Positions 11,105 through 15,937 of a stretch of DNA of 20,054 bases are shown here, piece after piece (the first letter of the stretch is position 1; each line of letters begins with the position of its first letter). The notes beneath the pieces were generated by a model, which was given only the letters and a program-made list of their open reading frames with translations, was not told the origin of the DNA and made no database searches. The stretch covers positions 1 to 20,054 of IMG/VR virus record IMGVR_UViG_2671180360_000015; one strand, 5' to 3'. The translations under genes and the position numbers were made by a program. Source of the stretch: a virus (taxonomy: Duplodnaviria > Heunggongvirae > Uroviricota > Caudoviricetes).

Positions 11105-11887
11105 TCATTTTAGAAGCCCTATTATAGCTGCAATCATACTTCCTACGCCGCCGACTGCTGCGAAAAAAGTAGCCCAAAACATTTTCTTCTGAGTACTCAA
11201 ATTCTCTCTGTACCGCACCTCATCTTTATTGAATGTAGATATTGTGTTCAGTGCCTTTCCTGTTGGCCTAAATCCACTACTTGTTTCAACAAGATCTCCA
11301 TTCTGAACAAGAGAATTCAGGCATAAACGAAGCTCTTTACGCATCCTGTTTTTATCGTCATGGTATACCCATAAACTACCAGCGACTTCGGTCATTATTG
11401 AAAACTCACTAAACACAGTTTGAGCATCCCATTCACGATACATTCTTATAATCGTTGAGAGAACAAACATCACATCAGTTATTTCTTTTTTTTGCTGTCG
11501 ATAAATATATTTTTCACGACTAAACTTTATATTTTCATAATTAGACTTTACTCTAAAGAACAACTCCCTTAAAAATGTTAAATCATTTAAAGAGTTAAAT
11601 CGCAACTCATGCGCACGGTAGTAGTAAACACCAAAAAAAGAATCAGGCGTAACCTCAGAAATATCCAAGCATGAACTTATATGAAATCTACGCTCCTCAT
11701 CATCCCATTTAAAAGCCTTTATCTTCCCATCAACCAAACAGTCAAAGAGGTATTCTGTATCATTTTTATCTTTAATATATACAGAGTACATATCATACTT
11801 AATCGCGTTTTCATATAACAAACTAATACGGCCATCATCTGGCGTTCTTTTCTTATCAAACTTCTTAAGTTGGTTTATAATTTTCAT
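11105..11887 (-). CDS. Hypothetical protein, 260 aa, soluble N-terminal domain with a single C-terminal TM anchor; candidate defence effector
   Basis: Long ORF in AT-rich DNA; C-terminal hydrophobic segment MFWATFFAAVGGVGSMIAAIIGLLK; no recognisable motif; weak SD. Confidence 0.65.
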   Translation of the reverse strand: MKIINQLKKFDKKRTPDDGRISLLYENAIKYDMYSVYIKDKNDTEYLFDCLVDGKIKAFKWDDEERRFHISSCLDISEVTPDSFFGVYYYRAHELRFNSLNDLTFLRELFFRVKSNYENIKFSREKYIYRQQKKEITDVMFVLSTIIRMYREWDAQTVFSEFSIMTEVAGSLWVYHDDKNRMRKELRLCLNSLVQNGDLVETSSGFRPTGKALNTISTFNKDEVRYRENLSTQKKMFWATFFAAVGGVGSMIAAIIGLLK

Positions 11888-11996: not shown

Positions 11997-12770
11997 TCAA
12001 TTATCTATGATTGATATCACCTTACCAGTTTTTATATCAACACGCGCAGCAATCGTCTGTTTCACCACTCCGCCATAAGCATTAGTTCCGCGAAACGTGG
12101 TTTTCACAATGGCATGCGGGTCTTTATTCAAAACCAGATGATATACCGTTGATACATGTTTATAAGATGAATCATCGTTCATATTATCTTTAATTAGTTT
12201 TTCCAATGGACGATAAGAACCATCCCAACCACTAAAATTACTCTGAAATGTATCAAGATTGATTTTATTGTTTAGTGAATTCGGGTCATTTTCATAATCA
12301 TTAAAGCACCACCCAAGAACATCACCGAGTTTCAACTCATCATCTTTGGTAAATGTATATTCACTCATGCAGGCATAAAACGCATCTGACGCGGTGGCTG
12401 GAACTTCCTTAAAATCAATGTAACTATTCACAATATCGTGTCGTGTTTTCTTTGACTCGTTCCGATATTCCTTGAGTGTTTTTTCACCATATTCGAATGT
12501 TTTTTGGACTTTATGTTCTGCAACGGTTGATGTTTCAGTTTTATCAACTGGCTGGCTTTTTTCTGTTGGATAGAGTATTGAACCAATTATGCTCAATACA
12601 AAACCTCCTCCGAGATAAACCGCACTTGCACGTTTGCGGTTTGGCATTCGCACCAGTGATGGCTTGATTAACCCGATGAAGAAAGCAACGAAAAAAGCGA
12701 GTGATAGAAAAGCGATTATAGTATCCATAGCTATCCTTTTTGCATCATCCACATAAAAAATCGACCTCAT
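11997..12770 (-). CDS. Hypothetical membrane protein, 257 aa (243 aa from the start at 12728); two N-terminal TM helices and a ~180-aa C-terminal domain predicted to be periplasmic
   Basis: AT-rich ORF; TM1 TIIAFLSLAFFVAFFIGLI, basic loop RMPNRKRAS, TM2 AVYLGGGFVLSIIGSILY; the ATG at 12728 has the better SD (AAAGGAtagctATG). Confidence 0.65.
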   Translation of the reverse strand: MRSIFYVDDAKRIAMDTIIAFLSLAFFVAFFIGLIKPSLVRMPNRKRASAVYLGGGFVLSIIGSILYPTEKSQPVDKTETSTVAEHKVQKTFEYGEKTLKEYRNESKKTRHDIVNSYIDFKEVPATASDAFYACMSEYTFTKDDELKLGDVLGWCFNDYENDPNSLNNKINLDTFQSNFSGWDGSYRPLEKLIKDNMNDDSSYKHVSTVYHLVLNKDPHAIVKTTFRGTNAYGGVVKQTIAARVDIKTGKVISIIDN

Positions 12771-13157
12771 GTTAGCAACAGGATGCTTACTTTTGAATAT
12801 TTGTAAGTTGTTAGCTCTCCAACCTAACTCCTTTCAACCGTCAAAAACCGGCACCAACGCAGTAAAAATATGTCTGTCAACTAACGCCTCGCTACGCTCG
12901 TTGTTCAACCCCGCCAGCCCTGAAAACAAGTTTCACGACTGGCGGCGTTCTCTATCGTCTTCGTGGTGGTGGCGCAACTCTGGACTGACCGATATAGTTA
13001 AGCCGCCCGTAATTATCCCGAACTATTTCGGCACACCCGACCAGCTCATCGGGCGTCAGATTTTCGTTGACCATAATCCGCTGTAAACGCTGAACAATAG
13101 CCATCAGCTTGATATTTTTAGTTTTATGGTGCGGTATCTCGCCTGGTATTCTGTGCA

Positions 13158-13613
13158 TTATCCAAGCCACCCGTTTTGCTTTGCACGCTCCACCTGTTCA
13201 TCTGAATAGTTCCATATCCCATCCGCAGCAACCACTGCCCCGCCAGACAGCCCCGTCTCTGGTTCATACATAACAGCAAGGCCGAGCTGATGCATAATTT
13301 CATGATTAATTCTGAATACCAGACCACGTTCACTAAGTTCTTTCCAGTTCACAATCTTATATGCGCCCGTATTAAGCAGCTCAATACTTAGCAAGACATA
13401 ATCTTCCAGCCAGTCTGACAGGTCAGTAACATCTGTTATCCGGGCTTCAACCTTTCGCCCCGTAAACACACCCTGCACCCATTCATGCAAAATCAACGTG
13501 TCCCCGCGCTCATAATTACGGTCATTTTTCCGAAACTCTGCGCGTTTTTTTCCTTCCAGTACAAGGTCGAAATATTTTGCGTGCAGCTTTACCTCGTGAA
13601 TTTTTGCCATCAT
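13158..13613 (-). CDS. ASCH-like / DUF3850-type protein with C-terminal extension (151 aa)
   Basis: MAKIHEVKLHAKYFDLVLEGKKRAEFRKNDRNYERGDTLILHEW resembles the DUF3850/ASCH signature; start ATG overlaps the gpA stop (ATGA); occupies the P2 orf91 position. Confidence 0.7.
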   Translation of the reverse strand: MMAKIHEVKLHAKYFDLVLEGKKRAEFRKNDRNYERGDTLILHEWVQGVFTGRKVEARITDVTDLSDWLEDYVLLSIELLNTGAYKIVNWKELSERGLVFRINHEIMHQLGLAVMYEPETGLSGGAVVAADGIWNYSDEQVERAKQNGWLG

Positions 13614-15937
13614 GTCCACTCCATTACTGTTGAGAATCCCGGCCACTCATCAGCGACCGGATACGTGAATTTTTTCCCGTCATAATTTACGGTCGCGCCA
13701 CGCACCAGCGCCTCAAGCTCCCATCGTTGCGGCCTGATACCGTTCTGAGCGAGGTCAACGCGGATACGGGTAATTTGCAATCGTTCTGACCGGGTCAGTC
13801 TGGCCGATGGCGCTATTTCATGCGGTTTTAACGGGTTTCCGTTTCTTTGCTGACGGTTTGGTCTTCTCAGACCGTGTTTTAATGCGCTTCTGAGCGCCCT
13901 CACGACCTCCGGGTCATTCCATTCGATAACACCGTCATCAACCAGATTAAGCACTGCTGCGGCGTGCTCAGAAGGTGTGGGAGCCGGTAACGAAGCATCA
14001 CCACCGGTGAGCTTTCCACAGTTATTGACAGGACTCCGAGGCGCGGCGATGCCGCTTTTTAAAGTCAAAGGCTCAACGACCGGAACTTTCGGAACAATGC
14101 GCCAGTCCGTCGTTCTGGTGATATGAATATGACGCGCGCCGAGATGCGGCGCGTAAATGCCGACCACTCTCTCGACTTCTTCCTCGTACTCGTTAACGTC
14201 ATCCGACGGGCTACGGGCGACCCTGACAGTCTGACAATCGCGCGGGACATTTGCCCCACCCTGCGCGCTGATATACAACGCAAAATCACCACTGTCTGCG
14301 GCGGCGCGTGCAGCCTCGACGCGCTCGTCAAACTCATCAGCAATGCTGACGCCGCGCGGCAATTTGCGTAGTTCACGGTAAGCCCCCATTGTCGGCAGGC
14401 CAACCGTTTTAAATTGCGGGATGCGCCACGTTGACGCCCATGCGGTAACAGCCGCTGCAGTGTCTTTCAGCGGCCTGCCGGTGTCGTTATCGAGCTGACC
14501 ATCCAGTGCATAGCCGTCGATGTTTTTTGAAATGTATTTCGCGATATATCCCGCAGCACCGCCCCGGTTAAGGTGTTTTGCCTGAAAACGGTTTCGCGCG
14601 GCTCCTCTTTCGTCGCCATCCTCTTTGAGCGCATAGCGACGCATGATTTCGATAATCTGGTTACGCTGGCGTGAATTACAAAAAAGCATCATATGCCAGT
14701 GCGGCGTTCCGTCGTGGTGTGGCTCGACGACACGCAAACCGTAGACCTGTAAATCATTATCCTTGAATGCCGTGCGCATCAGGCTCCAGATACGGCAGAG
14801 ATAACGCTGCGCATCCTTTGGATTAAATGCCTCATCGTTCCAGCCGTGATTAAGCTGCACGGTTTTACTTTCGCCTTTTCCTACCTGACGTGTCGGGTGA
14901 TACTTTGACGGCGCGGTCAGCGTGATAAACATCCCCACATCACCCTCTGCAGCGGCGTAACGCTCAATACCGGCAATGGTGTTCATCAGCTCCATCCGGC
15001 GAATTTCAGGATTAGAAATACTGCCCATCACCTTACTGATAAGGTCGATGCGCTCGCCGGTTTCCCTGTTTTCAAGGTCACACGATTTAAGAAATTCCAG
15101 ATTTGCCTGGCGGCGCGCACGCACATCACGAATGGCGTGTTTACTGGCATAAGGAGAACGGTCTTTATTGACCTCCCCGACAGCTATCAGTAACGCTTCA
15201 TGCCAGCGCATACGCTGGCCTTTAAGCTGACTAATCCACCACTCATCGTTAAACAGGCGGGCAATGGCAGAATATGCCTGCCTCGTGGTCATCTGTCCTT
15301 TACGGTATTTTTTCCAGTAGAGCGGGGAAATATTGAAAGCACGTGCAGCGCCAGCAACATGACCATACAGATGTGCCTGCGCCTCATCCGTAAACAGCGA
15401 TTCTTTTTCACCATGCGCATCAACCCATGCATCGCAGAGTTCCTCATACATCATGAAAAGCTGCGATGAGATACGGGCGGCAAACTTTTTCAGCTCCTTG
15501 TCATTCATTCCAGGCAGGCGCGCATAGTGGTCACGCTCTGCCAGAAACAGCAACGACGCGTCGGTGTTCATTTCATGGCGCTGATTCACGCGCTCAATGC
15601 GCGGCCATAAACGACGCTGAAAAGTGGATGTGAGGAAATAAAACCCGTGTACCGGACTTTTATTGCGCCGGATGTAGTCATAGCGTGAAGTAAACAGCGA
15701 GCGCAAAAAGTAAGGCAGGCGGTTAATCGTGGATAAAACACCTTGCACCTGACGCATCTCGTCACGTGTAAGGGGTCTTTCGCGCCCGACAGCCTCGCGT
15801 GGCGCGTTCCATGCATAAGCACCAGTAAACGCCTTACCGGTGCCTGCGGCAAATGCTGACGGAGGGACAAAACGCCCGGAGGCTTTAACGGCCATATGAG
15901 CCAAAAGCCTCAGAACAACGCTTGCTGAGTTGCTCAA
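13610..15937 (-). CDS. A: Replication initiation endonuclease gpA (rolling-circle initiator)
   Basis: HUH motif in EPHHDGTPHWHMMLF; start at MAVKASG (15895) would give 761 aa, the recalled P2 gpA length; longest ORF is 775 aa. Confidence 0.9.
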   Translation of the reverse strand: MSNSASVVLRLLAHMAVKASGRFVPPSAFAAGTGKAFTGAYAWNAPREAVGRERPLTRDEMRQVQGVLSTINRLPYFLRSLFTSRYDYIRRNKSPVHGFYFLTSTFQRRLWPRIERVNQRHEMNTDASLLFLAERDHYARLPGMNDKELKKFAARISSQLFMMYEELCDAWVDAHGEKESLFTDEAQAHLYGHVAGAARAFNISPLYWKKYRKGQMTTRQAYSAIARLFNDEWWISQLKGQRMRWHEALLIAVGEVNKDRSPYASKHAIRDVRARRQANLEFLKSCDLENRETGERIDLISKVMGSISNPEIRRMELMNTIAGIERYAAAEGDVGMFITLTAPSKYHPTRQVGKGESKTVQLNHGWNDEAFNPKDAQRYLCRIWSLMRTAFKDNDLQVYGLRVVEPHHDGTPHWHMMLFCNSRQRNQIIEIMRRYALKEDGDERGAARNRFQAKHLNRGGAAGYIAKYISKNIDGYALDGQLDNDTGRPLKDTAAAVTAWASTWRIPQFKTVGLPTMGAYRELRKLPRGVSIADEFDERVEAARAAADSGDFALYISAQGGANVPRDCQTVRVARSPSDDVNEYEEEVERVVGIYAPHLGARHIHITRTTDWRIVPKVPVVEPLTLKSGIAAPRSPVNNCGKLTGGDASLPAPTPSEHAAAVLNLVDDGVIEWNDPEVVRALRSALKHGLRRPNRQQRNGNPLKPHEIAPSARLTRSERLQITRIRVDLAQNGIRPQRWELEALVRGATVNYDGKKFTYPVADEWPGFSTVMEWT

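Follow-up and report, generated by a model that had tools for sequence, protein, structure and literature searches.

The DUF3850-DUF7415 gene behind the replication gene A of P2-like prophages and its shortened allele in phage P2

The stretch of DNA analysed in this study, referred to as the window, comprises 20,054 nucleotides of a P2-like (Peduovirus) prophage and is collinear with phage P2 and with Peduovirus P2_2H4. The integrase gene and the genes C, cox, B and A are located on one side of the window, and the genes encoding the portal protein (Q), the terminase (P) and the capsid on the other. The gene under study directly follows gene A in the early operon. The respective region of Escherichia coli strain E70 is 100% identical to that of the window and carries the RefSeq entry WP_001409868.1, which is annotated as 'ASCH domain-containing protein'. 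RefSeq, Pfam (PF12961 and PF24187) and the PHROGs collection (PHROG 1812) already list the gene, in families that are uncharacterised. The features of the gene and of its immediate surroundings are compiled in Table 1.

Table 1. Features of the orf91 locus in the window
Feature	Position	Strand	Remarks
gpA replication endonuclease (rolling-circle initiator)	13610..15895	-	operon gene upstream of the gene under study
GGAG, Shine-Dalgarno-like element	13619..13622	-	inside the 3' end of gpA; sequence reading
ATGA overlap (start codon 13613..13611; gpA stop codon TGA 13612..13610)	13610..13613	-	sequence reading
Whole gene, 151 aa, N-terminus MMAKIHEV	13158..13613	-	full-length orthologue of P2 orf91; PHROG 1812
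DUF3850/ASCH (PUA-like beta-barrel), residues 5-77	13383..13601	-	signature G21-x-K23-x-x-E26-x-R28; profile, model
Inter-domain linker, residues 78-86	13356..13382	-	lowest-confidence block of the model
DUF7415 core, residues 87-136, two helices and a beta-hairpin	13206..13355	-	profile, model
HEIMH, residues 104-108	13290..13304	-	E105 and H108 family-conserved, H104 lineage-specific
C-terminal helix and tail ...AKQNGWLG, residues 137-151	13161..13205	-	
Segment of 233 nt absent from P2	13157..13389	-	direct comparison with P2
ORF of 68 aa downstream of the gene	12952..13158	-	PHROG 11386; conserved final gene of the early operon

The junction between gpA and the gene under study reads GGAGTGGAC-ATG-ATG-GCA on the minus strand. 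The second in-frame ATG (13610..13608), which is used as the start codon in the RefSeq entry, overlaps the gpA stop codon as TGATG, and the distance from the GGAG element is 5 nt to the first of these ATG codons and 8 nt to the second. At the opposite end of the gene, the stop codon TAA (13160..13158) overlaps the ATG of the 68-aa ORF as TAATG. The overlaps at both ends indicate that the early operon finishes with three genes that abut one another in a chain, and the protein under study and gpA are probably made from one mRNA and co-translated. The deduced product of the 68-aa ORF (RefSeq WP_000554772.1, hypothetical) shares 75% identity with that of the equivalently placed ORF of a P2-like prophage of Salmonella, whereas the two-domain protein encoded by the preceding gene is less conserved between these prophages, with an identity of about 54%.

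Two further genes of the minus strand, encoding proteins of 260 aa (11105..11887) and 257 aa (11997..12770), separate the early operon from the portal gene and occupy the position of the P2 tin/old hotspot. Their GC content of 31-39% differs from the approximately 55% of the phage backbone. They were assigned to PHROGs 7611 and 3403, gave no match in searches of Pfam, NCBIfam and PADLOC, and represent candidate lysogenic-conversion or exclusion cargo.

The Pfam profile search revealed two domains in the deduced protein. The DUF3850 model (PF12961) matched residues 5-77 with an E-value of 1e-17 and a score of 64.5 bits against a cut-off of 22.9, with complete coverage of the model (profile positions 1-77 of 77), and the PUA-like ASCH superfamily (PF04266) was matched with an E-value of 2e-10 and 41.6 bits. 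Membership in the ASCH superfamily is indicated by the profile match, the predicted beta-barrel fold and the N-terminal GxKxxExR signature, and membership in DUF3850 by a fold equivalent to that of the solved family member 3IUW. The predicted structure has a mean pLDDT of 66 for residues 81-90 at the transition between the domains. Residues 87-127 matched DUF7415 (PF24187) with an E-value of 6e-14 and 52.4 bits against a cut-off of 27, and the family residues N103, H108, G111, S123, G97 and D131 are present. The invariant or nearly invariant residues of the DUF7415 core are G97, L98, I102, N103, H108, G111, L112, G121, S123 and D131. The protein ends with the pattern A-K-x-x-G-W-[LIV], which is also found in DUF7415 proteins of peduoviruses with unrelated N-termini. 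DUF7415 is represented in the protein by residues 87-146 and constitutes a phage-restricted alpha/beta mini-domain.

The PHROG 1812 profile matched the protein end to end with an E-value of 3e-80, and other PHROGs matched either the N-terminal or the C-terminal half only, which indicates that the two halves also circulate separately. No matching model was found in NCBIfam, and a sequence search of the PDB with DUF7415 yielded no match even at E<=10; the structural matches of the C-terminal domain in BFVD were exclusively DUF7415 proteins. A preliminary description of the locus, made from the nucleotide sequence and its open reading frames, had postulated a protein of about 151 aa whose start overlaps the gpA stop codon as ATGA, with some 80 N-terminal residues resembling DUF3850/ASCH and an unusual C-terminal extension of about 70 aa. 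The length, the overlap and the assignment of the N-terminal domain are confirmed by the data given above. The overall interpretation is supported only in part. The extension does exist but is not unusual, being a known Pfam domain and the common state of the gene; nor is it disordered, a possibility that had been raised, as the C-terminal domain is predicted to be folded with a pLDDT of 91.

The distribution of the gene was determined in bacterial and phage genome sequences. Of 5,426 complete E. coli genomes, 378 carry it, and 346 of these cover at least 80% of its length. Two-domain homologues with 50-58% identity are located directly after gpA in P2-like prophages of Enterobacter, with a gap of 5 nt, and of Salmonella, with an ATGA overlap. 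A tblastn search of 50,697 phage records detected 26 records covering at least 80% of the query, all of them P2-like. Residues 1-80 alone were matched in the same collection by hundreds of T7-like and other phages, and residues 86-146 alone by T4-like phages of Klebsiella, Enterobacter and Aeromonas and by T5-like phages of Salmonella.

The Orf91 protein of phage P2 (NP_046796.1, 'DUF3850 domain-containing protein') is encoded at the same locus behind gene A and with the same ATGA overlap. The part shared by both genes is 98.4% identical at the nucleotide level and the first 82 residues of the proteins are nearly identical, but P2 Orf91 consists of 109 aa and lacks residues 83-151, that is, the entire DUF7415 domain, whereas the gene in the window is full-length like those of W-phi and P2_2H4. 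The sequence of P2 is shared with the window only down to position 13390 and reads ...TATGTCTTGCT followed directly by GCACAGAATAC..., by which position 13390 of the window is joined to position 13156. Owing to the deletion of these 233 nt, the reading frame continues from Leu82 into codon 2 of the 68-aa ORF located downstream. Accordingly, P2 Orf91 ends with a tail of 27 residues that is unrelated to the protein under study and starts with codons 2-9 of this ORF, the P2 sequence ...LLHRILGEIL corresponding to MHRIPGEIP of the 68-aa product. The homology between P2 and the window stops 26 nt past the junction, where the tin/old cargo of P2 starts.

As judged from these sequences, the ancestral gene order is A, DUF3850-DUF7415 and small ORF, since the downstream ORF is conserved at the same position in the Salmonella prophage. 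An insertion of the DUF7415 segment into an ancestral short form was considered and rejected, because Salmonella has both the two-domain gene and the small ORF; the two-domain gene directly after gpA in Enterobacter also argues against it. Since P2 is a viable laboratory phage without DUF7415, this domain is presumably dispensable for laboratory growth. A preprint names P2 orf91 'an essential protein' in passing and without data (PMC12407873), a remark that could concern only the DUF3850 part kept by P2; otherwise, the gene is listed as 'unknown' in the literature.

In the annotation of W-phi (AY135739) the gene is split into gp91, corresponding to the DUF3850 part, and gp92, a 64-aa product matching the C-terminal DUF7415 part. 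A frameshift or an error of annotation probably accounts for this split. Moreover, chimeric proteins were observed in E. coli (P0016, P0020, P0032, P0039, P0013, P0036 and P0041), in which Cox or RepB is joined to DUF7415, or DUF3850 to fragments of tail-spike or gpD-like proteins. These chimeras look like in-frame deletion products of decaying P2-like prophages, which suggests that the region is prone to deletion.

A phmmer search with residues 80-151 against 1.84 billion cluster representatives retrieved 197 clusters at E<=1e-3, indicating that the DUF7415 family is small. Matches are found in more than 900 phage records, and the domain is restricted to phages. The respective proteins range in size from 53 to 515 aa and contain DUF7415 in N-terminal, internal or C-terminal position. 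A further Pfam domain was detected in no more than 8 of the 79 representatives with a length of 110 aa or above. Fusions were observed with the dATP/dGTP pyrophosphohydrolase domain PF04447 (three cases), an Rv2179c-like 3'-5' exonuclease, a thymidylate kinase, PGDYG and DUF551. Additionally, one protein (P0172) carries the pair in reversed order, with DUF7415 in front (residues 4-44) and DUF3850 behind it (residues 94-166), the latter being 43% identical to DUF3850 of the protein under study. The occurrence of two independent fusions of DUF3850 and DUF7415 argues that the domains are functionally linked. A literature search yielded no paper mentioning DUF7415.

The genomic neighbourhood of DUF7415 was compared in temperate and lytic phages. 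A peduovirus of Citrobacter encodes a 187-aa protein, composed of an unrelated N-terminus and DUF7415, directly after gpA and overlapping the gpA stop codon. The DUF7415 gene of Lelliottia, encoding 147 aa, has its first nucleotide at the final base of a replication gene of the Toprim primase type (902 aa) and is followed by a Dam methylase gene, the 186-like prophage of Cronobacter shows the order zf-DksA, DUF7415, Dam and gpA, and an Erwiniaceae prophage the order zf-DksA, DUF7415 and gpA. In most of these prophages, including those of Enterobacter and Salmonella, start and stop codons overlap or nearly abut. These contexts indicate that it is DUF7415, and not ASCH, that stays beside the replication initiator, even when the initiator belongs to a different family. 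A further observation was made in Lelliottia (L009 2293..6257) and Cronobacter (L014 5001..8505), where the ASCH-less DUF7415 gene adjoins a Dam-type (MethyltransfD12) methyltransferase gene as well as a replication gene, which hints at a link to adenine methylation.

Among the lytic phages, Klebsiella phage Roth68 carries a stand-alone DUF7415 copy between nrdD and nrdG, one copy was detected near a Nudix hydrolase gene and another near td, denA and rnlA. The T5-like Salmonella phage bombadil possesses the adjacent paralogues gp061 and gp060 (L017 3389..4222) with two DUF7415 repeats each and four in total, and this tandem pair is located directly upstream of a gene for a replication origin-binding protein. 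The internal duplication suggests a unit that works in pairs. The neighbourhood evidence from lytic phages is weak, because replication and nucleotide genes abound in their early regions in any case.

The reading that we favour, and to which we assign about an even chance of being correct, regards the protein as a dispensable accessory of the replication operon that is made behind gpA and consists of an ASCH binder or reader, a linker and a DUF7415 docking module. Two phage modules, each of which also occurs independently, are joined in it by a flexible linker. The first module (residues 5-77), a minimal ASCH/PUA-like barrel, would most likely bind a nucleobase, a nucleoside or nucleic acid, and this ligand may be modified, for instance as N6-methyladenine. 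The second module (residues 87-146) would most likely serve in oligomerisation or docking and, less likely, as a binder of a small ligand, and DUF7415 would couple its partner domain to the machinery of replication and nucleotide supply. ASCH domains have been predicted to be readers of modified bases and were repeatedly tied to phage loci with N6A-methyltransferase and ParB genes (PMC4738411), and fusions of ParB-CTPase with DUF3850 are enriched in prophages (10.1101/2025.10.10.680097). The literature on DUF3850 itself was found to contain domain-census statements only. A more specific proposal, which we consider rather unlikely, is that DUF7415 represents a hitherto unrecognised functional unit, about 55 residues long and new in its fold, forming a dimer or oligomer that either binds or processes a nucleotide or tethers dNTP-pool enzymes and base readers to phage replication initiators. 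In that case, the protein composed of DUF3850 and DUF7415 would read modified bases at the replisome. If true, such a replisome-associated reader, recognizing for example Dam m6A at the origin, would tune the rolling-circle replication of P2-type phages.

The DUF7415 domains of all collected proteins were reduced to less than 70% identity, which left 124 sequences, and the residues were counted per column. The family motif is G-L-x-x-[RK]-I-N-x-E-[IV]-L-H-P-x-G-L-A ... G-x-S-x-G-A-x-V-x-x-D-G-x-W-x-Y. Asn103 and Gly111 are present in all 124 domains, Gly97 in 123, His108 in 121 and Ser123 in 120 of them, while the columns of Asp131 and Glu105 contain these residues in 109 of 121 and 95 of 123 sequences, respectively; position 109 is Pro in 115 of 124 domains and Gln in the protein under study. 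The preliminary description had drawn attention to the motif HEIMH and had suggested that the apparent HExxH may be coincidental. The motif is indeed present and is located within a predicted helix (residues 98-110), the placement that had been proposed for checking, and H104 is kept in most close relatives from peduoviruses, as would be expected of a functional zinc site, be it of a mini-metalloprotease or of structural nature. Such a site is nevertheless highly improbable, since position 104 is usually Arg (44) or Lys (28) and only in 14 of the 124 non-redundant domains His, the 60-aa domain is far below the size of any zincin, and no fold match to a metalloprotease was obtained in addition to the negative PDB sequence search. 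Position 104 is Tyr in the Salmonella orthologues that follow gpA. A zincin metalloprotease was consequently rejected, and HEIMH is a chance product of a lineage-specific His beside two family-conserved residues. The polar residues N103, H108, S123 and D131, which are invariant or nearly so, fit ligand binding or catalysis no less well than docking. Some ASCH domains are amidohydrolases or RNases. An enzymatic role is taken here as one joint explanation and judged unlikely as such; it would be exerted either by the ASCH domain, acting as a YqfB-/EOLA1-like N4-acylcytidine amidohydrolase or a ZmASCH-like ribonuclease with DUF7415 as its accessory, or by DUF7415 itself, acting as a very small catalytic domain on a nucleotide with H108, S123 and D131 in a G-x-S-x-G-like 'TGxSxGA' motif.

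It is distinctly unlikely that the protein is an early-made anti-defence factor that sequesters a nucleotide-derived immune signal or inhibits a defence directed against replication or the dNTP pool, with DUF7415 acting as oligomeric binder. The free-standing DUF7415 proteins with 60-90 aa that T4-like and T5-like phages encode in their early regions, the tandem repeats and the pyrophosphohydrolase and exonuclease fusions would be in line with this role, as would the position of the gene at the border of the P2 tin/old hotspot, but the gene is fixed beside the replication genes, unlike typical variable anti-defence cargo, and the search of the protein against the PADLOC-DB profiles gave no significant match, the best E-value being 0.022 over a stretch of 20 residues, and hence no assignment to a defence family. 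One GenBank record, that of Klebsiella phage Roth22 (PQ657795), labels a stand-alone DUF7415 gene of 85 aa (L003 3998..4255) as 'anti-CBASS protein acb1'. This label is wrong and was rejected, as a BLASTP comparison with T4 57B yielded an E-value of 0.46, and the true Acb1 homologue of Roth22 is a 207-aa gene annotated as 'RNA ligase' (L003 466..1089; E=1e-28). The anti-defence role therefore gains nothing from this record.

At present, the result mainly corrects the annotation and the context of orf91. The textbook Orf91 of P2 is a truncated allele, and the real gene in wild P2-like prophages encodes two domains. What is new is comparative, namely the recognition of P2 Orf91 as a deletion allele and the tie of DUF7415 to replication initiators and dNTP-pool enzymes. 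The HExxH motif of the protein is not worth pursuing. A binding partner of DUF7415, once found, would give a role to a recurrent early 'hypothetical' gene of P2-like, T4-like and T5-like phages.

In comparison with known proteins, the C-terminal domain shares the family residues N, H, G and S with the Pfam DUF7415 proteins of T4-like, T5-like and P2-like phages, and it differs from other DUF7415 proteins by its C-terminal fusion to DUF3850 and by Q109 in place of the near-invariant Pro. The protein 3IUW of Enterococcus faecalis, a structural genomics entry designated 'activating signal cointegrator', is a stand-alone DUF3850 protein of about 80 aa and consists of this single domain without DUF7415. 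The ac4C amidohydrolase YqfB, the ribonuclease ZmASCH, TRIP4/ASC-1 and the YTH and EVE readers share 8-15% identity with the ASCH domain under study, which with about 75 aa is shorter than the 100-160 aa found in ASCH enzymes and readers.
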